Source of the DNA: Candidatus Latescibacterota bacterium
GTDB lineage: Bacteria; Latescibacterota; UBA2968; UBA8231
Direction of reading: 5' to 3'
Length of the DNA stretch: 64,000 nt
NCBI GenBank assembly: GCA_965248265.1
Contig: CBDFJF010000001.1
Coordinates: forward strand, 1,728,001-1,792,000
Positions within the stretch are counted from its first letter, which is position 1, and each line of letters starts with the position of its first letter. Shown here in pieces: positions 2,790-36,072 of the stretch. Below the pieces are notes generated by a model. It was not told where the DNA came from. It did not search any database and worked only from the letters and a program-made list of their open reading frames with translations. The translations under genes were made by a program, and so were the position numbers.

Positions 2790-2894
2790 GATGTCTCACA
2801 AGGGTCTGGGAGTTTCGGTATGGACGCTTGTTCCCGGACCAGTATGGAATAGATTTGGCACGCTTGCCACCAGCCTTCCAACCGTGAGTTTACT

Positions 2895-4058
2895 ATGTCC
2901 CTTAAATGCAACTCCACCACTTTTCGCGACCGCAAGGCGATCTGCCTTGAAAGCGATACCCTGCAGGTGATCACCCTTACCGGCTGCGGTCACCTGGCCA
3001 GCCTGCGTATTCCCGATGTCGATGTGAATCCGATGTGGGAGCCGCCGTGGGCCGGAATCGAGCCGGAGGACTGGGATCACGATCAGCATGTGCCAATCTA
3101 CGGCCCCGGCGAGGGCCGTCTGCTCGCCTCCCTGGCCGGTCACTCGCTGTGCCTGAATCACTTCGGCGACCTTACCGAGACCGAGATCGAGGCCGACGGC
3201 TACTTCCACGGTGAAGCCTCGAATCTTCCATGGACCGTCTTCGACCAGCGTGCGGAAGATGGCGAAGCCCGCCTCGATTACGGCCTGAAACTTCCCGAGG
3301 CTCGCATGCGTTTTCAGCGAACGCTGCGCATCCGCGAAGGTGAGTCGACCCTTTATTTCACGGAAAGCACGACGAATCTGACCCGCATCGATGCGGCTTT
3401 TTGCTGCCAGCAACACGTTACCCTCGGTCCACCATTCGTGGAGAGTAGTGTTTCACGCGTCGACCTACCAGCAAAACGCGGTCAAACAAACCCGGTCGTC
3501 ATCCATGAGACTGATCCGATAAAACCTGATCAGACTTATGACTGGCCCAATGCTCCGCTACAGGCTGGCGGCACCCGTAACCTGCAGCTCTACCCCGAGG
3601 AGCACTGCATGGCTGTGGTCAGTGTGCTGCTGGAACCAGAAGAGGAATTCGCTTACGCAGCCGTGTCGAATCCGAGGCTGGGATTGCTGCTCGTATACGT
3701 CTTCCCGCGTGAGATCTTTCCGTGGACAACCCTGTGGTACGAGCACGAAGCCGCCGAGTTTCTGCCGTACACCAACAGAGCCACGACCTGGGGCGTCGAG
3801 TTCGGTTCCGTGGCGCAGGCCGTCAAATTCATGGAGAATCTGACGGCAGGACCGTTGCTGGGACATCCGCGCTGTGGAATGTTGTCTGCCTTGCACACGG
3901 TCGATATCAACTACCAGGCTCACATGATGAAGATCCCGTCAGACTGGCAAGGGGTCGCACGCATCGAGCACGACAAGGGCGAGGCCTTGCCTGGGAAGTC
4001 GGATCCGACCGCAGTGCGCGAACACCTTCCGATTGGTTGGTGTCAACGCAGACCCTAA
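2895..4058 (+). CDS. Hypothetical protein, probable galactose-mutarotase-like (aldose epimerase/DUF4432-like) fold
   Basis: 387-aa ORF with FHGEA and QHVTLGPPF motifs typical of this fold; family is inference. Confidence 0.55.
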   Translation: MSLKCNSTTFRDRKAICLESDTLQVITLTGCGHLASLRIPDVDVNPMWEPPWAGIEPEDWDHDQHVPIYGPGEGRLLASLAGHSLCLNHFGDLTETEIEADGYFHGEASNLPWTVFDQRAEDGEARLDYGLKLPEARMRFQRTLRIREGESTLYFTESTTNLTRIDAAFCCQQHVTLGPPFVESSVSRVDLPAKRGQTNPVVIHETDPIKPDQTYDWPNAPLQAGGTRNLQLYPEEHCMAVVSVLLEPEEEFAYAAVSNPRLGLLLVYVFPREIFPWTTLWYEHEAAEFLPYTNRATTWGVEFGSVAQAVKFMENLTAGPLLGHPRCGMLSALHTVDINYQAHMMKIPSDWQGVARIEHDKGEALPGKSDPTAVREHLPIGWCQRRP

Positions 4059-26212: not shown

Positions 26213-27118
26213 CTAATCAGATTGCCTGGCCTGCCCCAGGAGCGTGTCGAGGGGACTCTCGATGCGTACGAGTTCCTTGCGCGTGACATGTGTGTAGACC
26301 TCGGTGGTCTTTGAACTCTTGTGTCCAAGAAGCTCTTGGATGTAGCGCAGATCGGTACCGCCCTCCAATAGATGGGTCGCGAAGCTGTGGCGCAGCGTGT
26401 GCACGGTTGCTCGTTTCTTGATTCCCACGGCGATAACAGCCCTGGCAAACACCTTCTGCACGGACCGCTCTGTCAGGTGGCGGCCCCGACGCGCTCCGGG
26501 GAAAAGCCATGTCGATGGCTGGTATGCTTTCCAGTACAGCCGCAGGCCCTCCAAAATAGACCTGGGCAGTATGGTGTACCGATCCTTGCGACCCTTGCCT
26601 TGCTTTACCCGGATGAGCATCCGCTCGCTGTCTATGTCACTCACCTTCAGACGAACTACCTCACCCACACGAAGCCCGCCGGCATACAACAAGGCGATGA
26701 TTACCCGGTGTTTCGGATTTCGCTGCGAGTCCAACAGTCGCAGCACTTCTCGCTGACTGAGTATCTCGGGCAGCTGGCGCCCACTCCGAGGCCTGCGCAG
26801 ACCTTCCAATGGGGCTGGCTGTTTCAGCACTTCCCCGTAGAGAAAGCTCAGAGCACTGTAGGCGATGTTGAAGGCTGAGCGGCTGACCTTACGATCGACG
26901 ATGAGCCACTCGAGATGTGATCTCACCTCGGACTGGCGGTCGCCCCAAAACCCGCGCTTCCATTGCAGGAAACGCCGGCAGTATCCCATGTATGACTTCT
27001 GTGTCTTCTTGGCGTAGCCCCTCAATCGCAGCTCTGACTCGAGGCGGTTGAGGATGGTCAGTTCTTCTTTGAAAAGATCCGGGTGTCTCCGATAGCGCCG
27101 CATGTTCGTGTTTCTCAA
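26213..27118 (-). CDS. Tyrosine recombinase, integron-integrase-like but lacking the IntI-specific insertion
   Basis: N-terminal LRLRGYAKKTQKSY domain; catalytic R (GLR), K (GKGRKDR), HTLRH, LGH, Y (TTEVY) intact; start may be ATG 27103. Confidence 0.92.
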   Translation of the reverse strand: MRNTNMRRYRRHPDLFKEELTILNRLESELRLRGYAKKTQKSYMGYCRRFLQWKRGFWGDRQSEVRSHLEWLIVDRKVSRSAFNIAYSALSFLYGEVLKQPAPLEGLRRPRSGRQLPEILSQREVLRLLDSQRNPKHRVIIALLYAGGLRVGEVVRLKVSDIDSERMLIRVKQGKGRKDRYTILPRSILEGLRLYWKAYQPSTWLFPGARRGRHLTERSVQKVFARAVIAVGIKKRATVHTLRHSFATHLLEGGTDLRYIQELLGHKSSKTTEVYTHVTRKELVRIESPLDTLLGQARQSD

Positions 27119-27293
27119 GCAAAGGTGTATCCCTTGCTTGAGAGAAATCGATGCCAGTCGGACTGCACGGCGAACGCTTCTGCTATCTCATACTCGCACA
27201 GGTGGATAACGTTGAAGCCCGCGTGTAAAACCTATTGCGACTGTTTACCCGAATACGCACCTTCGTGTCAGATAAGTAACACATAGCGTCGAT

Positions 27294-27329
27294 TATGCGA
27301 ACCTTTTGTTCGCATACAAGCAGTTAGAG
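27294..27329 (+). other. attI-like primary recombination site, crossover G27323|TTAGAGG
   Basis: GTTAGAGGC (27323-27331) is the exact reverse complement of GCCTCTAAC (28021-28029); preceded by the inverted repeat TATGCGAAC-ctttt-GTTCGCATA. Confidence 0.78.
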
Positions 27330-27352
27330 GCCATGCGGCCAAAGCGAAGACC

Positions 27353-27381
27353 TTGCACTCTATACGCCATTGGCGTATAGT
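27353..27381 (+). promoter_or_regulatory. Sigma70-type promoter and operator of TA cassette 1
   Basis: TTGCAC-17 bp-TATAGT overlapped by perfect palindrome CTATACGCCA-T-TGGCGTATAG (27360-27380); ATG begins 7 nt after the -10. Confidence 0.75.
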
Positions 27382-27387
27382 AGATCT

Positions 27388-27704
27388 ATGACCTTTGTTG
27401 AAACGCCCATCTTTTCAGAGGAAATTCTGACTCTACTACTCGACGATGGCTACCGAGCATTGCAACTGGCGATCCTGTTCCGACCCGATCAGGACAGATC
27501 ATCCCGCGCACAAGCGGCTTGCACAAATTGAGATGGAATTTGCCGCGTGGCGGCAAACGCGGCGGTTTGCGTGTCATTTACTACTGGGACAAACCCGACG
27601 ACACTGTTTACATGCTCTGGGTGTATCGCAAGAGTCGGCAGGAGGATCTAACGGCTCAGCAAGCCAGACTGCTCAGCAAACTTGTGAAGGAGTACCTGTC
27701 ATGA
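27388..27704 (+). pseudogene. RelE/HigB-family toxin, frameshifted (cassette 1)
   Basis: MTFVETPIFSEEI..YRALQLAILFRPDQ continues in another frame as IIPRTSGLHKLRW..GKRGGLRVIYYW; one base missing near 27492. Confidence 0.82.
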
Positions 27705-27991
27705 AAGATCGCGACTTTGACAAACTTGTAGATAGCGTCAAACAAGCCGGTGCGATCAAGCGCGGCAAACTCAAACCGGGCCGAACCATCCAGATGGACC
27801 CTGACGATGTCAGATTGATCCGCAAGAAACTGCAAAAGTCCCAATCTGAATTTGCCCTGATGATAGGGGTCAGTGTCTCTACTCTGCAAAACTGGGAGCA
27901 GGGACGCCGCAATCCCGAGGGCCCGGCTCGAGCCCTGCTCAAGATCGCTTCGGAGAATCCCGAAGCAGTGGCGCGATCCTTGAGTGCGTAG
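27701..27991 (+). CDS. HigA/NadS-like HTH-XRE antitoxin (cassette 1)
   Basis: SQSEFALMIGVSVSTLQNWEQGRRNPEGPA; ATGA overlap with toxin stop. Confidence 0.9.
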   Translation: MKDRDFDKLVDSVKQAGAIKRGKLKPGRTIQMDPDDVRLIRKKLQKSQSEFALMIGVSVSTLQNWEQGRRNPEGPARALLKIASENPEAVARSLSA

Positions 27992-28022
27992 CGAGCCCAC
28001 ACCCCGCCCCTGACCACACAGC

Positions 28023-28123
28023 CTCTAACAAACGGTTTACACTGCGCCGCCTTCAGCGGCTTGGCCTTCGGCAATCTGCCTTCGCTGTGCTCGACAGATT
28101 CGTAAACCGTAGAAACGTTATGT
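28023..28123 (+). repeat. attC-like site 1
   Basis: CTCTAAC...ACGGTTTAC/GTAAACCGT arms...GTTATGT; internal GGCCTTCGGCAA. Confidence 0.88.
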
Positions 28124-28158
28124 GCCATGAATGGAAAAGCCGTTCCCTGCCCACCCAC

Positions 28159-28188
28159 TTGACCAAGACGTACCACAATTGGTACATT
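28159..28188 (+). promoter_or_regulatory. Promoter and operator of TA cassette 2
   Basis: TTGACC-18 bp-TACATT with inverted repeat GTACCA-caat-TGGTAC (28170-28185); ATG at 28196, no RBS. Confidence 0.65.
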
Positions 28189-28195
28189 ACGACCT

Positions 28196-28546
28196 ATGAA
28201 TCGAGACAAGCCGTTGGCCGTTCGCTTCTTTTGCACGTCGACAGGCCGAGAGCCTGTCAGAGAGTGGCTGCGCAGCTTGAACCGCGAATCAAAGAAGGTC
28301 ATTGGTGCGGACATCAAGACGGTTCAGTTTGGATGGCCGCTCGGGATGCCGCTGGTGCGCAAGCTCGAGAGCAATATTTGGGAGGTACGCAGCACGCTTC
28401 CAAGCTCAATAGCTCGCGTTCTCGTAACGATTGACCAAGAAACCGTTGTCTTGTTGCATGGTTTCATCAAGAAGAGTCAGAAGACTCCCGCGAGAGATCT
28501 GGCATTGGCACGCACCAGACTTAAGATGCTTCAGGAGGAATCATGA
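28196..28546 (+). CDS. RelE/ParE-superfamily toxin, Gp49/DUF891-like (cassette 2)
   Basis: GREPVREWL, GWPLGMPLVRKL..IWEVR, LLHGFIKKSQKTP. Confidence 0.9.
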   Translation: MNRDKPLAVRFFCTSTGREPVREWLRSLNRESKKVIGADIKTVQFGWPLGMPLVRKLESNIWEVRSTLPSSIARVLVTIDQETVVLLHGFIKKSQKTPARDLALARTRLKMLQEES

Positions 28547-28824
28547 ATAAGAAACACGTCGGCAGCAGCTTCGATGAATTCCTCGCAGAAGAAGACCTGC
28601 TCAGCGAGGCAGAAGCAACTGCGGTGAAGCGCGTTATCGCCTATCAGTTGACTCAGTTCATGGAGGATAACGAGCTGTCAAAAACCGCGATGGCAAGGCG
28701 AATGCAAACCAGTCGTTCTGCACTCGACCGGCTGCTTGACCCAGCCAATCCCTCCGTGACACTACAAACTATGGATCGAGCAGCTCGAGCCTTGGGCAAA
28801 AAGCTGCGTATCGAACTGACCTGA
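28543..28824 (+). CDS. HTH-XRE antitoxin (cassette 2)
   Basis: HVGSSFDEFL, SKTAMARRMQTSRSALDRLLDP; ATGA overlap. Confidence 0.9.
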   Translation: MNKKHVGSSFDEFLAEEDLLSEAEATAVKRVIAYQLTQFMEDNELSKTAMARRMQTSRSALDRLLDPANPSVTLQTMDRAARALGKKLRIELT

Positions 28825-28869
28825 CTGTAAGCGATTCAACTCGCAAGGCTGTGGAATCGACTTCACAGC

Positions 28870-28960
28870 ACATAACAGCACTGTTCGCGCGGCGCGCCAT
28901 ACGGCGCTTGGCCTTCGGCAACCCGCATGCGCGGGTTCGCAAACCGGCAAGACGTTAACT
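28870..28960 (+). repeat. attC-like site 2
   Basis: ACATAAC...GTTAACT; 51 nt (28907-28957) identical to site 3 (30829-30879). Confidence 0.9.
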
Positions 28961-28983
28961 GACATTCTAGTTTAGCAGAACTC

Positions 28984-29466
28984 ATGACATTTTATCTTGG
29001 CCTTTTCATTGTTGGCATTGCATTCGGTACATTGGCGCTCACCTTCATGTCCATTTCTCGGTTGGAGAGTGTGAAGTTCAATACGGGCGAGGTTCAGTGG
29101 AAAACAGTCTTGCTATGTTACGTGTGCAGCACCAGCTATATCACCGGGCGCCCGCTTCGCCCTCTTTATGGATATTCGCTCTTGCTAGTGGCCATCACCC
29201 TTTACCCGGCAGCGTTCGCCATTGGCCAAGGATTCGATGGTACGTTTGGATCCTCACATTTTCTCGTCTTGTCTCGCTTGGCGAACATTCTATGCCAATT
29301 GTGCGATTGGCCAGCGATGGGCTTTTGTCTTGAATACCTCGGATTTCGTTTCCGATCTGTCTTCTGCGTAGCTGGGTTTGCCGTCACAGGCTTCCTACTG
29401 CTATTCAATCCGATCGCCTTCTTTGGCTACTGGCCACCCTTCATGACCGAGTATGTGAGGATTTGA
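28984..29466 (+). CDS. Hypothetical membrane protein (cassette 3)
   Basis: 160-aa hydrophobic ORF starting just after the R' box of site 2. Confidence 0.65.
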   Translation: MTFYLGLFIVGIAFGTLALTFMSISRLESVKFNTGEVQWKTVLLCYVCSTSYITGRPLRPLYGYSLLLVAITLYPAAFAIGQGFDGTFGSSHFLVLSRLANILCQLCDWPAMGFCLEYLGFRFRSVFCVAGFAVTGFLLLFNPIAFFGYWPPFMTEYVRI

Positions 29467-29469
29467 CGA

Positions 29470-30783
29470 TGCAGCAACCGGGCTGATAGGTAACAGTCTA
29501 AACCGGGTTGATGGGTGACACTATTGTTTTGATTGAATTCACTCCCGTACGATCATGTCCCTCTCGTCGACGGTGGCTAGGAGGACGGTGTTGAAGTAGA
29601 TGGCCCAGACGCCGTCGTCGATCTCCTCGAGACCGATGTCGAGATGCTTGAGAGACTGAGCGATGAAGATGAGCTTGTGGCCGAGGCGTATGGTCCCGGC
29701 TCGGGTGACGTGCTTGATGACGAAGTGACCGGGGTACTCAATGGTCGGCATGCGGCCGGGATAGGGCCGGGGTGATGGGTGGTACCGGGAGCCAGGAGTC
29801 TTGCCGTTGAGGGCGTCATGGGGACGCTCGTCGTTGTAGAGCTGTCGGAAGCGCTGGAAGGATCGCTGCTGGGCGGCCTTGTTGGCGGCGGGTGGCCGAC
29901 AGGTAGCGGCCTTCAAGGTGCGATGCATGCGTTCGTGGGCGCCATTTTCCTGCGGCGATGCCGGGCGGATCCGCTGGTGCACGATGCCGAGCCTCATCCA
30001 CCAAACGTTGAGTCGGCATAGCCCATGCAATCCTCTGGAAGCAAAGGGAACGCCGTTGTCGGTGCGAATGGCCTGAGGCAGGCCGAATTCGCGGAAGGCT
30101 CTCTCGAAGACCGGACGCGCATGCAAGGTCTTGATGTCGGGCAGGGCGCGGCAGGTCAGGAGATAGCGAGTGTGCTGATCGCTGATGGTGAGAGGGAAAC
30201 ACCAAACTCCGTTCTTGGTAGGAAATTGGCCTTTGAAGTCGGCCGTCCACAGATCGTTGGGGTTGTCGGTGGTCGGCGGCACGGCTCCGGGGTGCTGACG
30301 TGGGCGTCGTCGTCGTCGCTTCTTCACCAGGCCTTCGCGCACCAGCAGATCGCCTGCCGTACTGACCGCCGGCCAGGAGCAGATGTGCGGATGTCGAGGC
30401 GCCAGCCAGTCCAACAGTTTGTTCGGTCCCCAATCGGGGTGCCGTGTGCGCGCTCCGAGAATGAGCTCGGCAATCTCTGGCGCCATGCGATGCGGACAGG
30501 TGTGGGGCGCGTGACTGCGGTCCTGTAACCCGGGCACCCCCTCTTCGGCGTGCCGCTGAAGCCACTTGTATCCGGTTTTGCGGCTGATCCCGTATCGCTC
30601 GCACAGCTCCGCTCTCGAGTAGTGCCCGCGCTGATCGTCGGCGATAAATCGCTTACGTTGTTCCATGGGTGCTGTCTCCATCCAGGGCATCGACCAACCT
30701 CCCAATTGGGGTTGGTCAAAAAGTAGAAGGAGTGTCACCCATCAACCCGGTCAGATGTGTTACCAATCTACCCGGTTTGTACC
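29470..30783 (-). mobile_element. IS481-family insertion sequence
   Basis: About 50-bp imperfect terminal inverted repeats, each with two AACCGGG..GAT.GGT.ACA units; ends approximate, no target duplication seen. Confidence 0.85.
29539..30690 (-). CDS. IS481-family DDE transposase
   Basis: MPWMET start, HTH GISRKTGYKW, WTADFKG, RTDNG, PQENGAHERMHRTLK, YNDERPH. Confidence 0.93.
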   Translation of the reverse strand: MPWMETAPMEQRKRFIADDQRGHYSRAELCERYGISRKTGYKWLQRHAEEGVPGLQDRSHAPHTCPHRMAPEIAELILGARTRHPDWGPNKLLDWLAPRHPHICSWPAVSTAGDLLVREGLVKKRRRRRPRQHPGAVPPTTDNPNDLWTADFKGQFPTKNGVWCFPLTISDQHTRYLLTCRALPDIKTLHARPVFERAFREFGLPQAIRTDNGVPFASRGLHGLCRLNVWWMRLGIVHQRIRPASPQENGAHERMHRTLKAATCRPPAANKAAQQRSFQRFRQLYNDERPHDALNGKTPGSRYHPSPRPYPGRMPTIEYPGHFVIKHVTRAGTIRLGHKLIFIAQSLKHLDIGLEEIDDGVWAIYFNTVLLATVDERDMIVRE

Positions 30784-30792
30784 GTGCACGTC

Positions 30793-30882
30793 ACTTAACA
30801 CACGGTTTGCGCTGCGGCGCATTCGCGCCTTGGCCTTCGGCAACCCGCATGCGCGGGTTCGCAAACCGGCAAGACGTTAGAT
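30793..30882 (+). repeat. attC-like site 3
   Basis: ACTTAAC...CGGTTTGCG/CGCAAACCG perfect arms...GTTAGAT. Confidence 0.9.
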
Positions 30883-30949
30883 GAAATGGGAACGGATGGA
30901 TTAAGGCCTCGGTCCCATATCTCCAAAAAGTGGTATACGGATACATAGG

Positions 30950-31453
30950 GTGAGAATCGTGACTACGTATTTCGCGGATTATAGGTGGTCTAAGCGCGAG
31001 CCAAAGGGGATATCGCCGATTGATGATCCCGCGGGCAAGGAGCATTTCCGCCTTTTTGAAGTCAATGGTGGCATGCGGCTAGAGCAGTTTGATGAGGCCG
31101 GCAAGTTCCGACGTCTTGTCTACTGTCCGCACGACGCGAAAATGGCGCGCGGTACGACATTTGAAGTCTCAGATGACCATACGCATAACATTCGTCGTTC
31201 TGAGGATGGTGCTGTGCGATCCTACGAAGTATACGTGTGGCCCGATGGCGACTATTCTGAGGATGTGCATCCGGAAGTCAGGATCTTCAATGAACACGGC
31301 AGGCTTGTGTGGCAACATCGACCACAGCGTGTGTCGGAATCTGCCTGGGATATTCACGTATTCGACGCGCTGGGCAAACCACGCGTGGTCTTGCACCACA
31401 CCGATTGCGACGGTCCTGAACCTGACACGATCGTTGAGGAATGGCTTGAATAG
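30950..31453 (+). CDS. Hypothetical protein (cassette 4)
   Basis: 167-aa ORF between sites 3 and 4; no motif recognised. Confidence 0.6.
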   Translation: MRIVTTYFADYRWSKREPKGISPIDDPAGKEHFRLFEVNGGMRLEQFDEAGKFRRLVYCPHDAKMARGTTFEVSDDHTHNIRRSEDGAVRSYEVYVWPDGDYSEDVHPEVRIFNEHGRLVWQHRPQRVSESAWDIHVFDALGKPRVVLHHTDCDGPEPDTIVEEWLE

Positions 31454-31547
31454 AGGAACGAACCGGCTGCATCAGGTAACACACTAGACGTCTGGGCCCA
31501 CGTGGCTTCTATTGTTGAGGTGCAGGCAGATGAGTGTCCCACATCAC

Positions 31548-31636
31548 ATATCACAGCAATTCACGCTACGCGCCGTTCGGCGCTAGACTTTGGGCAAGCC
31601 GCATTCGCGGCTTCGTGAATTGTGAAGACGTTAGAC
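31548..31636 (+). repeat. attC-like site 4 (degenerate R'')
   Basis: ATATCAC...CAATTCACG/CGTGAATTG arms...GAAGAC-GTTAGAC; same internal hairpin layout. Confidence 0.8.
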
Positions 31637-31652
31637 GAAACTGAGTCATAGT

Positions 31653-32420
31653 ATGGTACACGCCTGTGAGTTCGAATCCTTCCATTTGGATCAACTGCAG
31701 TATCTCATAAACAGCCATTTGGGATCACTGATCCCTGGATGGGCACTTCCGTCTGAGTACATCGCTTCCTGTCTAGAACGCAATCCAAGCGAATTCGTCA
31801 CTGATCCGTGGGTTTGCGAGCGCAAGACCTTCATCGCGATGAAGAATGACCGCGTGTGTGCTGCCGCCCATATTCTGAGATATCGAAAAGACTCGCCGGC
31901 AGAAGGCAGGGGTGAAATCGATTGGTTTGTGTGTTGGCCAAAGGAAGCAGAAGCAGGCGACGTCGTCTTATCAACTTCGGTGCAACAGCTTGATTCCTGG
32001 CAGACCCGCGCACCTTTGGCAGGGTGCAATCTCCCTGTGCGGGTTTTTTTTTTCGGGCGTACCAGAATCTTGGCAACGCATAATCGAGCTTCTCAAGCGG
32101 GCGGGCTTTACGCCAGGGCACGATGAGGCTGAGGCTATATACGGAGGGGGGCTGGCCTCGGTGGAACCATTGGCGGCGGCATGGCAGGCTTGTACGGTGT
32201 TGGGGTGGTGAAGAAGGCACGACGGCAAGGCATTGGAACTGCCGTAACAGCCGGTGCATGCTCATTTGCCCACGAATTGGGTTATCGTGCAGCGACATTG
32301 TTTGCTTCGGGTCAAGGCAAGTACTTGTATCCACATCTCGGCTTCGAGTTTATAGGCACATTCAGCCATTGGTCATATTCCAAGACGCGACAAAGAAAAC
32401 ATCAGGGGCTGAAGGCATGA
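31653..32420 (+). pseudogene. Disrupted GNAT acetyltransferase(s) (cassette 5)
   Basis: Frameshift at T10 run 32044-32053 and second break at G-run near 32146-32151; C-terminal piece has V..ARRQGIG..LY..LGF GNAT motif. Confidence 0.7.
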
Positions 32421-32424
32421 GGAC

Positions 32425-32458
32425 GCCTAACAAAGCGGATAGTTACTATCCGTTCACA
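32425..32458 (+). repeat. Truncated attC-like remnant
   Basis: CGCCTAAC just after the stop (1 mismatch to the complement of GTTAGACG), then short hairpin CGGATAGT-T-ACTATCCG. Confidence 0.5.
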
Positions 32459-32481
32459 AGCCTGAAAGGGGCCCTCCAAAA

Positions 32482-32946
32482 ATGGCGAAACGAAAAATCA
32501 GGGTTATTCATCCTACCGACCCCATAAATATCACCTTCGGAGCAGGCGATGAATATCGGTATCTTGCCACCGGAGACCACACGGACGGTGAATATTTCCT
32601 TGTTGAAGCCACTGTACCACCTGGTGGTGGCCCTCCCCCCCATATTCAAACCCGAGAGGAAGAAGCGTTCTATATTTTAGAAGGCGAGCTTACGTTTTAC
32701 AGCGAAGAGGGAGAGATTGTCGCCGGACCCGGAACCTATTTAAACATCCCCAAAGGGGCCACGCATCGTTTTCGCAACAACGGGAATCAGACGGCCAAGA
32801 TGCTCTTTTTCTTTGCGCCCGCCGGTATTGAAAAGCTCTTTGACGAGTTCAGTAAAATGGATGCCCCCGAAGACGACTTGAAAGCTGCAATCAAAGCCAT
32901 GAACACCTTGGGCCAAGAGTATGGTGTCGAGTACTTGGGAGAATAA
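32482..32946 (+). CDS. Cupin domain protein (quercetinase-like)
   Basis: GGGPPPHIQTREEEAFYILEG, PKGATHRF. Confidence 0.85.
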   Translation: MAKRKIRVIHPTDPINITFGAGDEYRYLATGDHTDGEYFLVEATVPPGGGPPPHIQTREEEAFYILEGELTFYSEEGEIVAGPGTYLNIPKGATHRFRNNGNQTAKMLFFFAPAGIEKLFDEFSKMDAPEDDLKAAIKAMNTLGQEYGVEYLGE

Positions 32947-33024
32947 GCTAGACAGGCGTGCCATCTTGGAACAACCGCTCGATAACCGAGTCGCATTATG
33001 ACTCTCCATCGAACGGAGACGCTC

Positions 33025-33639
33025 ATGAAGCTCACGAGTCTCTTCACGTCTCCTCAGATCGACATTCTCGCTGACCTTCACGAACGGGATAGCCGAGAAC
33101 GGCAGGAAGGGATACGAGAGGAGTCCAGTCTCAAGGCCCTTGCGCCGGCGGTCGCGCAGTTGCTTTACCTTCTCATTGTCCGAAAAAGCGCAAAGACGAT
33201 CGTCGAATTTGGCACCTCACACGGCTACTCAACGATTCACCTGGCCGCGGGGGCCGACAGGACGGATGGTCGCGTCTACACGGTGGACATGATTCCCGAG
33301 AAGACAACATCGGCTAGGGACAACCTCGCAGCGGCTGACCTCCTGCATCGGGTTACACTGGCGACTTGTGATGGAGCCGCCTTCGCTACGTCGCTGCCCG
33401 AGAGCATCGACTTCGTCCTGGTCGACTACGGCATCCCAGCGTTTGCGCCTGCCTGGGACGCGCTGCGCGGCAAGACTGAACCAGGGTGTCTAATTTTTTT
33501 CGATGGCGGCCCAAAGGGTTACTGGGAATCGGGGGCAGCAATGGGCTTCAAGGCGCTTCTTGAAGACGACCCCGCGTTCATTGTCTCGATCCTGCCGATG
33601 GAGAAGGACCAGTTGATCGGCGTAAGAATCGCGGAGTGA
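33025..33639 (+). CDS. Class I SAM-dependent O-methyltransferase
   Basis: IVEFGTSHGYSTIHLA, IDFVLVD; GGAG RBS. Confidence 0.85.
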   Translation: MKLTSLFTSPQIDILADLHERDSRERQEGIREESSLKALAPAVAQLLYLLIVRKSAKTIVEFGTSHGYSTIHLAAGADRTDGRVYTVDMIPEKTTSARDNLAAADLLHRVTLATCDGAAFATSLPESIDFVLVDYGIPAFAPAWDALRGKTEPGCLIFFDGGPKGYWESGAAMGFKALLEDDPAFIVSILPMEKDQLIGVRIAE

Positions 33640-33704
33640 TCAACCTTCAGTCTCCGTGAGGCTACCGCGACTGGGATGCGAATCAGATTAAGTGCGACCG
33701 ATGT

Positions 33705-33772
33705 ATACAGCAGCACTTGCGGATCAGGCCTGCGGGCCTTCGGCAAGTTCGCGAATGGGCGGAACGTTATAT
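33705..33772 (+). repeat. Degenerate attC-like site 5
   Basis: Retains GGCCTTCGGCAA and TTCGCGAA...GAAC-GTTATAT; left half eroded. Confidence 0.65.
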
Positions 33773-33823
33773 GACATATAAGATCCAAATGCATATAGAC
33801 ATCAGCAGGTCTATGTAAGGACG

Positions 33824-34875
33824 ATGGGGTTCCTGATGAGATCGGCGATATATGGTTTTCTTCTGGTGTGCGGCTGGACCGTTGGCAGCGAAGCGGAGGA
33901 GCGTAAACTCGGCGTGACGGTGGATCCCCGCATAGAATTGCTGTCGGTAGTTGGTGTTTTGGCGGGGCACCAGGGGCTTACCAACTATGACATCAGATAC
34001 AAGCAAGAGATTCTGAACCACTTTTCAGGGCATAGGGATCACCATGCCGTCAGGTTTCTGCGGGGCGTTATGGCCAGAGCCCTTGCTTCTGATGCTTACG
34101 CGATGGTGATGATTCATTTGTCTCAACCGCCAGCATTAGTCTTCGAGAGCCCAATCATCGATGACGAAATGGAAGACTATATTACGCGAGCGTTTGGTGG
34201 CGACATCAACATCATTGCATTCGTGGAAGGGCTCCGAGGCTTCGCCAACGACGCCAATTTCAATGAGTTTTTCGCCTCTAACGAGGACTTCTACCAATCT
34301 CTGCTCTCGGAAACTCTCGCCAAGCTTGGCAACACGGATTACATGGCTGCGCTCGAAGAGTCCTTGGACCAGTACTGCATCATGGCGGATTTGGGCCAAG
34401 TATCGTGCGTGATACAGGGATGATCGACCTTTTCAGTATTATCGGCCCTGTCGCAGAGAATGACGGTATTCCCGATTTCGGAGACGTTGCCAGACTTCAA
34501 GATGTCTTATGGCATGAGTTCGCCCATTCGTTTGTCGATCCCATAACCGCAGAGCATCTTGAAAGCGTCGAGAAATACTCAACCTTGTATGTCCCTATTG
34601 CAGATGAAATGATGAACGCCGGGGGGTATATGAACTGGCAAACCTGCGTTAACGAGCACATAATCAGGGCCATTACATGTCGATTGTTTCACGCTGAGAT
34701 TGGGCCAGCTGCCGGCGAGAAGGCGCTGGAAGCCGAAAGAGAGAAGGGCTTCAAGTACATCGACTCGATTTACTCTAGTCTGCTTATCTACGAAGCCAAT
34801 CGGTCCACGTACTCCTCCTTCGAGAGTTACTACCCCCAAATTGTTGCATCTTTCGGAGAGATTGCTGGAGAATGA
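33824..34875 (+). pseudogene. DUF4932-like secreted metallopeptidase (HExxH), frameshifted
   Basis: Signal peptide and VDPRIELLSVV; second frame LGPVLHHGGFGPSI...WHEFAHSF...NEHIIRA; break near 34360. Confidence 0.72.
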
Positions 34876-34910
34876 AAGACCCGATGTCCGTCGGTGTACT
34901 GTGCTCCAAC

Positions 34911-34933
34911 GTCACATAACAACACTGTTTCGC
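34911..34933 (+). repeat. attC-like left half-site, end of recognisable array
   Basis: GTCACATAAC (1 mismatch to the complement of GTTATATGAC at 33766) followed by AACACTGTTTCGC, similar to site 2. Confidence 0.65.
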
Positions 34934-35073
34934 AAGGAGTGATCGCTTTCACTATTGGGTATCCTTTTCTGGTTTCCAAATCTTGCTCATATCTATTAGT
35001 CTAAGACTGCACTTGGCCTTCTCTTTCACGGTGTTCGCTCTTAGCAGTTTCGAATCTCGAATTCACCTATGGA

Positions 35074-36072
35074 GTGTTGGTAGTGAATGAATCTGAAAGT
35101 TACGGCCCCGGCCCCGGACCGGGCATGCTGCTATCGACTGCACAGCTTGACGAGTTCAAAGCAGAGGGAGCGGTCGCGATTCCGGCATTGATACCTCCTG
35201 ATGTGCTTGCCGGATGGCAGGCTCAGATACGAGCCGCTTGCTCCGATGGCGTCGACTTTGACGACCCGGACACCTGGAAGCCCACTGGGCGCTACGCACC
35301 CGAGGGTGGCTGGCCCGAGTTCAGCCCCTGCCTGTATGATGTACCGAGTCTGCAGTCCATCGTGGAGCAGATCGGCGGCGGCGCCTTTGCCCCTTCCCAC
35401 CCAGCGGGGACGCGATGGACGCCGCAGGTACCGATGACACGGGTGATCCTGCCGAATGACCCGGACAAGGATTGGACCCCCCCGCACAACGGCCACCTCG
35501 ATGGCTACGCGTCAAGCTGGGGCGGGGGGTTCATGGCGATCTTCGTTGTGCTGCTCTGGGACGTCAGCAGCCCTACCGGCGGCGGCACAGCCTACTGGCC
35601 AAGGTCGCACCTGACCAATCACCGCTACTTCCTCAAGCACCCTGAGCAGTTCGACGGCTCGTACATGTTCTCTGAGCCTGTGAAGAGCGGTGGGCACCTG
35701 GCACTGTTGGAGGGGGACGACAGTGTGGGTGAGGTGGTATGCATGACGGCGCGAGCTGGCGACGCCATGCTGCTCCATGGCCTCACCACGCACATCGGTT
35801 CAGCTAACGCCCCGGGGACGAGGCAGGCACGGGTAGCGCAGTTTGCCCGGTACTGCTGCAGGGAAATGCGCGAGCAGGCACCGGCAGTCATGTTCCCTGA
35901 CAAGGATGGCACGCCATGGTCGCCGGACAAGGACGACCCCGCTGACGAACGAGCGAGGGCAACAGGATTTCTACCGCTGGATCACCCTGGCCGGCAGCTC
36001 TCACGATATGATGTGCCGGAAAACCTCTGGAAGTATTGGGGCCCTGCTGTCAACACAGAGCTCGCTGAATAA
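35074..36072 (+). CDS. PhyH-family dioxygenase
   Basis: HLDGY, GGGTAYWPRSH, AGDAMLLHGLTTH; start uncertain. Confidence 0.75.
   Translation: MLVVNESESYGPGPGPGMLLSTAQLDEFKAEGAVAIPALIPPDVLAGWQAQIRAACSDGVDFDDPDTWKPTGRYAPEGGWPEFSPCLYDVPSLQSIVEQIGGGAFAPSHPAGTRWTPQVPMTRVILPNDPDKDWTPPHNGHLDGYASSWGGGFMAIFVVLLWDVSSPTGGGTAYWPRSHLTNHRYFLKHPEQFDGSYMFSEPVKSGGHLALLEGDDSVGEVVCMTARAGDAMLLHGLTTHIGSANAPGTRQARVAQFARYCCREMREQAPAVMFPDKDGTPWSPDKDDPADERARATGFLPLDHPGRQLSRYDVPENLWKYWGPAVNTELAE

Follow-up and report, generated by a model that had tools for sequence, protein, structure and literature searches.

A chromosomal cassette array beside a short tyrosine recombinase without an I2 domain in Candidatus Latescibacterota

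Classical integrons exchange one strand and leave the junction to replicative resolution. Published work describes the I2 domain of the integrase as docking extrahelical bases and blocking the second exchange (PMC7790495), and the first extrahelical base as picking the strand (PMC2727003). Cassette capture is described as requiring I2, which is also presented as the innovation behind integrons, with no known intermediates (Escudero et al., PMC7790495). Archaeal integrons keep the domain (10.1101/2022.02.06.479319), and detectors define IntI by it (PMC4889954). Here we analyzed a locus in a 64,000-nucleotide stretch of a Candidatus Latescibacterota genome (assembly GCA_965248265.1, contig CBDFJF010000001.1, positions 1,728,001 to 1,792,000), hereafter the window, in which a short tyrosine recombinase gene adjoins an attI-like site and an array of gene cassettes.

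We found that the locus resembles classical integrons (IntI1; VchIntIA/IntI4 of V. cholerae) in its divergent recombinase gene, its attI, its co-oriented cassettes joined at G|TT, its R'' boxes complementary to the start of their own cassette, its hairpin sites, its toxin-antitoxin cassettes and its dispersed clusters without an integrase. Unlike classical integrons, it has an enzyme without the 41-residue I2 domain, and its sites have, for the most part, a 4/7 loop and no extrahelical L-box base. The R' consensus is GTTA-NNN-G, where that of classical integrons is GTTRRRY, and attI contains a perfect 9-bp inverted repeat. The system behaves like an integron yet lacks two features by which integrons are defined, the I2 domain and bulged attC sites. 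Our data indicate that this is a chromosomal cassette array whose units move at G|TT, probably assembled by the adjacent I2-less tyrosine recombinase. In the literature searched, which left out most subscription journals, we found no description of an I2-less integron.

The recombinase and the attI-like site

The window recombinase matches PF00589 (E 5.6e-41). The catalytic residues R150, K175, H240, R243, H266 and Y275 are all present, and are conserved in at least 90% of 112 relatives. The catalytic K and H motifs lie 59 residues apart; the figure is 100 for IntI1, as it is for six canonical IntIs from this phylum, and when the protein is aligned to IntI1 a gap falls at I2, the 41-residue insertion specific to IntI. 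Against TIGR02249 the enzyme scored 239.6 bits in two stretches, under the cut-off of 265. It also stayed under the cut-offs for XerA, XerC and XerD (NF040815, 207 against 220; TIGR02224, 173 against 335; TIGR02225, 171 against 330). The alignment is split in two on VchIntIA (2a3v) and continuous on XerA (4a8e). A model predicted with an alignment had a predicted local distance difference test (pLDDT) score of 87, while a single-sequence prediction (pLDDT 38) was set aside as unusable. The best structural match of the predicted model was XerA 4a8e (Z 22.6, root-mean-square deviation 10.1, 256 aligned residues), and its comparison with VchIntIA 2a3v gave Z 19.0 and 38% identity in the structural alignment.

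The enzyme is therefore like XerA, XerC and XerD in the length between its catalytic motifs and in its best structural match. Unlike them, it falls under the family cut-offs and heads a variable cassette array instead of acting at dif. A host recombinase, either XerC/D-like or another tyrosine recombinase of the same genome, might nevertheless act on the folded sites, as CTX phage uses XerC. The genome encodes about ten other tyrosine recombinases, one of them XerD-like, and the R'' consensus may resemble the XerC arm of dif. Xer recombinases, which have no I2, are known to integrate the folded single strand of CTX phage, and these folded substrates are a further likeness to this locus (PMC7790495). 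Against this explanation, the array's own recombinase gene stays beside attI and the array across several phyla and no dif-like site was seen at attI, and we regard the work of a host recombinase as very improbable.

We then compared the enzyme with other short recombinases. IS91-associated recombinases (y4qK-like) share 38-44% identity with it and have the same short patch region. They differ in forming a separate clade in a quick tree, and their three loci have no array (one isolated site-like match). The neighbours of the window gene are an Ldh_2-family gene and the array, with no adjacent IS91 transposase. In the quick tree six close relatives formed a clade (support 100) outside a 13-row clade of canonical IntIs (99 in the Shimodaira-Hasegawa-like approximate likelihood ratio test, SH-aLRT), and the short enzymes, the IS91-associated enzymes and IntI fell into one group without a resolved deeper branching order. 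Because this tree has long outgroup branches we claim no order of events for I2. The window enzyme also resembles recombinases described by Cury et al. (PMC4889954), which lack intI_Cterm and adjoin attC sites and four of which were placed between IntI and Xer. Their neighbourhoods contained fewer than three detected sites, and they were not counted as IntI, whereas arrays of the present system reach 34 parsed sites in 40 kb and sequence comparison shows movement.

The layout of attI beside the integrase gene is kept, with paired changes in the stem, in six genomes that have six different first cassettes. We refer to the genome of the window as G000 and to its close relatives as G002, G010, G011, G015, G018, G080 and G101; the attI of G011 is a shortened form. 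A candidate LexA-type motif, whose pattern was derived after the fact from these same sequences, was present in 7 of 7 integrase upstream regions and upstream of one of two lexA and one of two recA genes, against a genome rate of 0.07 per 250 nt. Since the box upstream of the integrase also precedes lexA and recA of G000, this suggests that the integrase may be under SOS control. The attI inverted repeat was also tried as a LexA box; it gave 31 genome matches (11 for the reversed control), none of them directly ahead of either lexA gene or either recA gene, and the motif at 27257 is the better candidate. A scan of positions 26900-27500 for sigma-70 promoters returned none.

Site geometry, cassette-end complementarity and cassette movement

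For predicted folding we compared 81 distinct attC-like sites. The best ungapped stem offset was +3 in 43 of them, +2 in 15 and +4 in 9. The usual site has four unpaired bases after AAC and seven before GTT, followed by a 9-bp stem and then a branched top. At offset +3, at least 6 of 7 bases paired in 51% of the 81 sites versus 1.5% with shuffled arms. Among 40 sites selected for the 4/7 register, a choice that favours pairing, 91% of stem cells pair and 19 further pair types occur, while arms swapped between these sites paired at most 66%. The bottom strand folds more stably in 69 of the 81 sites. The canonical register, with an extrahelical L-box base and a 5/5-6-nt central spacer, fits 2 of the 81 sites versus all seven controls (three of three class 1 sites and four sites beside canonical IntIs of the phylum). 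A first generic detector of canonical attC recovered only one of three control sites and was replaced. Rfam returned no family at the window sites (three chance-level matches) or at sites in seven related loci (one unrelated T-box).

The preliminary description had reported that the bases after each crossover complement the R'' box at the far end of the same cassette better than the R'' of their own repeat. We found all ten strings of its five complementary end pairs at their coordinates, with the scores it gave (9/9, 9/9, 9/10, 7/8 and 9/10). Those scores used a different window length for each pair. Re-scored with a fixed 10-nt window, cassettes 1, 2, 3, 5 and 7 match at 9, 9, 9, 7 and 9 of 10 positions, and same-repeat pairing scores 6 for cassette 2 and 6 for cassette 3. 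Cassette 4 had been singled out as an exception and is one; it scores 4/7 at positions 4-10 in own-cassette and same-repeat pairing alike, and its R'' is altered.

We next pooled 72 units from seven array sets (the window, the other G000 sites, G002, G010, G015 and two G018 loci). A site profile was built from 11 sites and then used to collect sites in the related arrays and the whole genome; 13 unparsable profile hits were omitted, as were units longer than 2.6 kb. The mean own-cassette match was 5.53 of 7 (positions 4-10) versus 3.87 of 7 for same-repeat pairing in these units, which are not fully independent since they include kin and duplicated cassettes. Where the two pairings could be compared (n=67), the own-cassette match was better in 51 units, worse in 10 and tied in 6. 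Shuffled pairings, which would have scored equally well had the earlier claim been wrong, averaged 3.66 with a maximum of 4.11, and none of 10,000 reached the observed value. The signal sits in positions 5-7, 9 and 10, positions 1-4 and 8 being nearly invariant. A separate set of 22 units from distant relatives matched at 2.32 of 3 positions versus 0.99 when shuffled, a value that 0 of 5,000 shuffles reached. R'', stem and branched top all belong to the cassette itself, and therefore R'' complements the start of the same cassette. The complementarity of cassette ends is real and, taken alone, is ordinary integron biology.

A gradient from perfect proximal matches to mismatched distal ones, also proposed earlier, was not borne out. 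With the fixed window the last cassette scores 9/10, as does the first. The rank correlation of match with array position was -0.77 in the window (p 0.23, n 4), -0.23 in G002 (p 0.19, n 34), +0.31 in G010 (n 10) and +0.11 in G018 (n 5). It was significant in one of five arrays, that of G015 (-0.95, p 0.014, n 5), whose distal units span truncated sites. A newest-first order of cassettes from the integrase is still likely, because alteration and truncation affect the distal sites and leave attC sites 1-3 whole.

Evidence that cassettes change place came from other copies of the same units. A second copy of cassette 1 lies elsewhere in G000 (C1:779833-781951; 99.7% over 627 nt and 98.3% over 181 nt), with an IS3-like insert, another site before it and another cassette after it. 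We also used contigs from four metagenome runs, of which X1, X2 and X4 represent one sample, perhaps the one from which the assembly was made, and X5 is an independent metagenome from a different study. In X5 a 3,318-nt contig carries a related integrase with cassette 1 about 2.1 kb further on; the match spans exactly 27323 to 28120, with an attC right arm before it and another cassette after it. A cassette shared among three relatives has identical first 14 bases in all of them, standing directly behind attI in G101 and behind an attC site, a different one each time, in G015 and G018, and a relative of cassette 2 (78%) stands in G018 behind a different attC. Cassette content is variable between related genomes.

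The far end of the shared cassette (loci L108 and L109) takes three forms, a full site in G101, a site without a hairpin in G015 and a short end resembling the attI spacer in G018. The last may be compared with the delta-attI cassettes of PMC12901181. In the G015 array (L108, about 2825-3656), positions 2 and 3 are two tandem 410-nt cassettes that are 73% alike.

Shared cassettes diverge from base -1 leftwards, and cassettes beginning G-A-T-A end in a matching T-A-T-C at their own far end. Together these confine the crossover to between bases -1 and +2 of GTT, which fits G|TT. Judged from these junctions, the cassettes move as whole units. Along with the matching of their ends, this sustains the earlier description of the units as integron-type cassettes joined at G|TT.

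Whole-unit movement could also result from Xer-style double-strand recombination, in which the short enzyme would make two exchanges at a simple site, namely the right half of attC or attI. The Xer-like length and fold of the enzyme are consistent with this, the perfect inverted repeat of attI could be a double-stranded binding site, and a few cassette ends are short sites without a hairpin. Two exchanges by tyrosine recombinases normally need identical spacers. Here the spacers differ between partners and remain with the left-hand site after movement; moreover, R'' and R' covary although 60-110 nt separate them in the circle, and the stems show paired changes. We therefore hold double-strand recombination to be quite unlikely.

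Linkage, related arrays and the window array

The short enzyme and the sites are found together. Ten relatives were found among 40 with a match at E 1e-40 or better, and the close ones carry an array upstream of the gene and divergent from it. Applied to two more loci with a short integrase, the site profile gave 10 matches; in 11 canonical-IntI loci it gave none. Distant relatives occur in Paenibacillus, Clostridia, Bacteroidota and other Latescibacterota. Both flanks were available for 27 distant loci; here 64 of the 71 asymmetric sites are downstream of the gene and on the same strand as it, and 18 of these loci have at least two. By the profile definition the window array has no I2-domain integrase and would count as a cluster of attC sites lacking integron integrases (CALIN), yet it carries attI and a linked recombinase.

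We considered whether this is an ordinary CALIN whose builder was a canonical IntI, either working in trans or no longer present, with the short recombinase a bystander or degenerate neighbour. Its G|TT footprint is identical to the classical one, and IntI1 tolerates the loss of extrahelical bases in attI x attC recombination (PMC2727003). Cury et al. came across 21 recombinases of this I2-less kind next to attC sites and did not accept them as IntI (PMC4889954). Of 151 genomes of the phylum, 15 have a canonical IntI, and some of these belong to the same family. However, no IntI exceeded the TIGR02249 cut-off in any of the eight close genomes (G000 and the seven relatives named above), which are 84-97% complete. 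None of 21 matches in G000 itself passed that cut-off, and a six-frame motif search for a hidden IntI gave only chance matches. The near-absence of the canonical register (2 of 81 sites, versus 7 of 7 controls) also speaks against a canonical enzyme, as does the report that IntI1 and VchIntIA cannot carry out attC x attC recombination when both sites lack extrahelical bases (PMC2727003). Finally, attI stays fixed beside the short gene while the first cassette changes. We consider a canonical IntI an unlikely source of the array.

Assembly by the adjacent recombinase also has points against it. Besides the canonical IntIs in the phylum and the incompleteness of the searched genomes, the integrase gene has an internal stop in G002, the genome with the longest array, and is apparently frameshifted in G010 and G101. 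Close relatives of the enzyme are also found adjoining IS91 transposases without an array. Most of 80 related loci show no site, many of them because the contig ends near the gene, and the distant loci are not independent because many are Paenibacillus kin. Nine of the 81 sites have, by eye, a one-base stem bulge in a different register and one is fully symmetric. IntI1 integrates a site stripped of its extrahelical bases at a rate only about 6-fold lower (PMC2727003), so that integration, at least, might still be the work of a canonical enzyme in trans. Circle junctions such as 28954-to-28118 were seen in none of the contigs of the four runs; because contigs drop rare forms, this absence shows nothing.

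The longest related array lies at G002:C1:2023100-2062900 (L104, L112), beside the integrase gene with one internal stop. It contains at least 34 parsed sites in 40 kb and three duplicated cassettes, and the count is a lower bound since the array reaches the limit of the sequence examined. In G000 the profile gave 29 hits; 5 of these lie in the window, and the other 24 are scattered singly or in small clusters. Those away from the integrase include C2:3899193-3907684 (nine in one run) and positions on C1 near 662-676, 759-783, 843-851, 967-970 and 1011 kb. The same genome encodes four closely related long-branch tyrosine recombinases, at C1:685766-686401, C1:703326-703961, C2:3033622-3034059 and C2:3930322-3930984.

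The features of the window locus are listed in Table 1. The nearest named relatives are Candidatus Latescibacterota, at 85-86% identity. The recombinase gene points away from the array, which has a lower G+C content. The first three sites are intact. The R'' of site 4 is altered, and beyond it the sites are shortened or missing. Unit 4 is likely a fusion of two cassettes, since it contains an R''-like remnant and the R'' of site 4 fits a cassette of the G-A-T-A type. The frameshifts in the distal part of the array are probably real because contigs from the same sample span the distal genes without gaps. In cassette 1 the RelE-like toxin gene (27388-27704) is frameshifted in both G000 copies while the antitoxin gene is whole; the X5 copy differs there by one base. 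PADLOC returned only domain-level matches for the cassette genes.

Table 1. Features of the recombinase and cassette array locus in the window (ORF, open reading frame; HTH, helix-turn-helix)
Feature	Position	Strand	Description
Tyrosine recombinase, 301 aa	26213..27118	-	Divergent from array; alternative ATG start at 27103 possible
Candidate LexA-type operator	27257..27268		Upstream of integrase; pattern derived after the fact from these same sequences
attI-like site	27294..27332	+	9-bp inverted repeat with 5-nt loop (27294-27316), 6-nt spacer, crossover G|TT at 27323
Cassette 1	27324..28117	+	RelE-like toxin (frameshifted near 27490) and HTH antitoxin
attC-like site 1	28020..28126	+	R'' 28020-28029, 2/6-nt loop, unbulged 9-bp stem (28032-28040 with 28102-28110), branched top, R' at 28117
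Cassette 2	28118..28954	+	Gp49/RelE-like toxin and HTH antitoxin
attC-like site 2	28867..28963	+	4/7-nt loop, R' at 28954
Cassette 3	28955..30876	+	160-aa ORF without Pfam or NCBIfam match, then inserted IS481
IS481-family insertion sequence	29470..30783	-	Inserted 12 nt ahead of TAAC of R''
attC-like site 3	30790..30885	+	3/7-nt loop, perfect 9-bp stem, R' at 30876
Unit 4	30877..31630	+	167-aa ORF without family match; R''-like remnant 31471-31480 after ORF
attC-like site 4	31543..31639	+	R'' 31543-31552 ending TATC, 4/7-nt loop, perfect 9-bp stem, R' at 31630
Cassette 5	31631..32431	+	Frameshifted GNAT acetyltransferase; R'' 32422-32431 retained, remainder of attC lost
Cupin and O-methyltransferase genes	32432..33766	+	No intact sites; shortened attC-like site about 33699-33775, R' at 33766
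Last recognisable cassette	33767..34940	+	Split DUF4932 gene; only R'' 34911-34920 and left arm

Two observations concern other elements of the window. All nine long IS481 copies of G000 (that of the window and eight others) have TAAC 10-16 nt past the same end, six of them at exactly 12 nt, against a TAAC background of 0.8% per position window, and four copies directly precede an attC-like R''. This suggests that the IS481 of G000 has a target preference. Beyond the array a PhyH-family gene (35066-36054) has two paralogues on C2 that are 78-80% identical, and no attC-like site was seen there.

Proposed mechanism and implications

We take the adjacent recombinase, on the strength of its sequence and linkage, to be the probable catalyst of the array. 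Each cassette would leave the array as a circle and be carried in this form, with R'' paired to R'. The site would be read as a folded single strand, probably the bottom strand; we infer this substrate because R'' covaries with the distant R' and because the spacers differ and are not swapped. As in classical integrons, one strand would be exchanged at the R box and replication would resolve the junction. New cassettes would enter at attI, and expression of the enzyme may be under LexA control. Because I2 and the extrahelical bases are both missing here, another mark of the strand is needed. The three extra unpaired bases on the R' side may replace the extrahelical bases, choosing the strand and stopping the second subunit from cutting.

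A broader possibility, which we put forward tentatively and hold to be less probable than not, is that these loci belong to a second, widespread integron class in which the I2 helix was never gained, a living counterpart of the missing step from Xer to IntI. Such a class would recombine folded single strands with the strand marked by the asymmetric loop, and its attI would perhaps be a hairpin too.

Our data make it likely that the integron exists in a second version, so far overlooked, to which this system belongs. With a naturally I2-less enzyme that has an attI of its own and matching sites by the dozen, the claim that I2 is necessary can be put to the test by standard assays. If the enzyme is active, surveys have missed a class of gene-capture systems, including those of cultured Paenibacillus, in which the same 4/7-loop sites follow the same kind of gene. 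Under the broader possibility, Bacillota and Bacteroidota, in which present-day detectors find few complete integrons or none, would be among the groups that have them.

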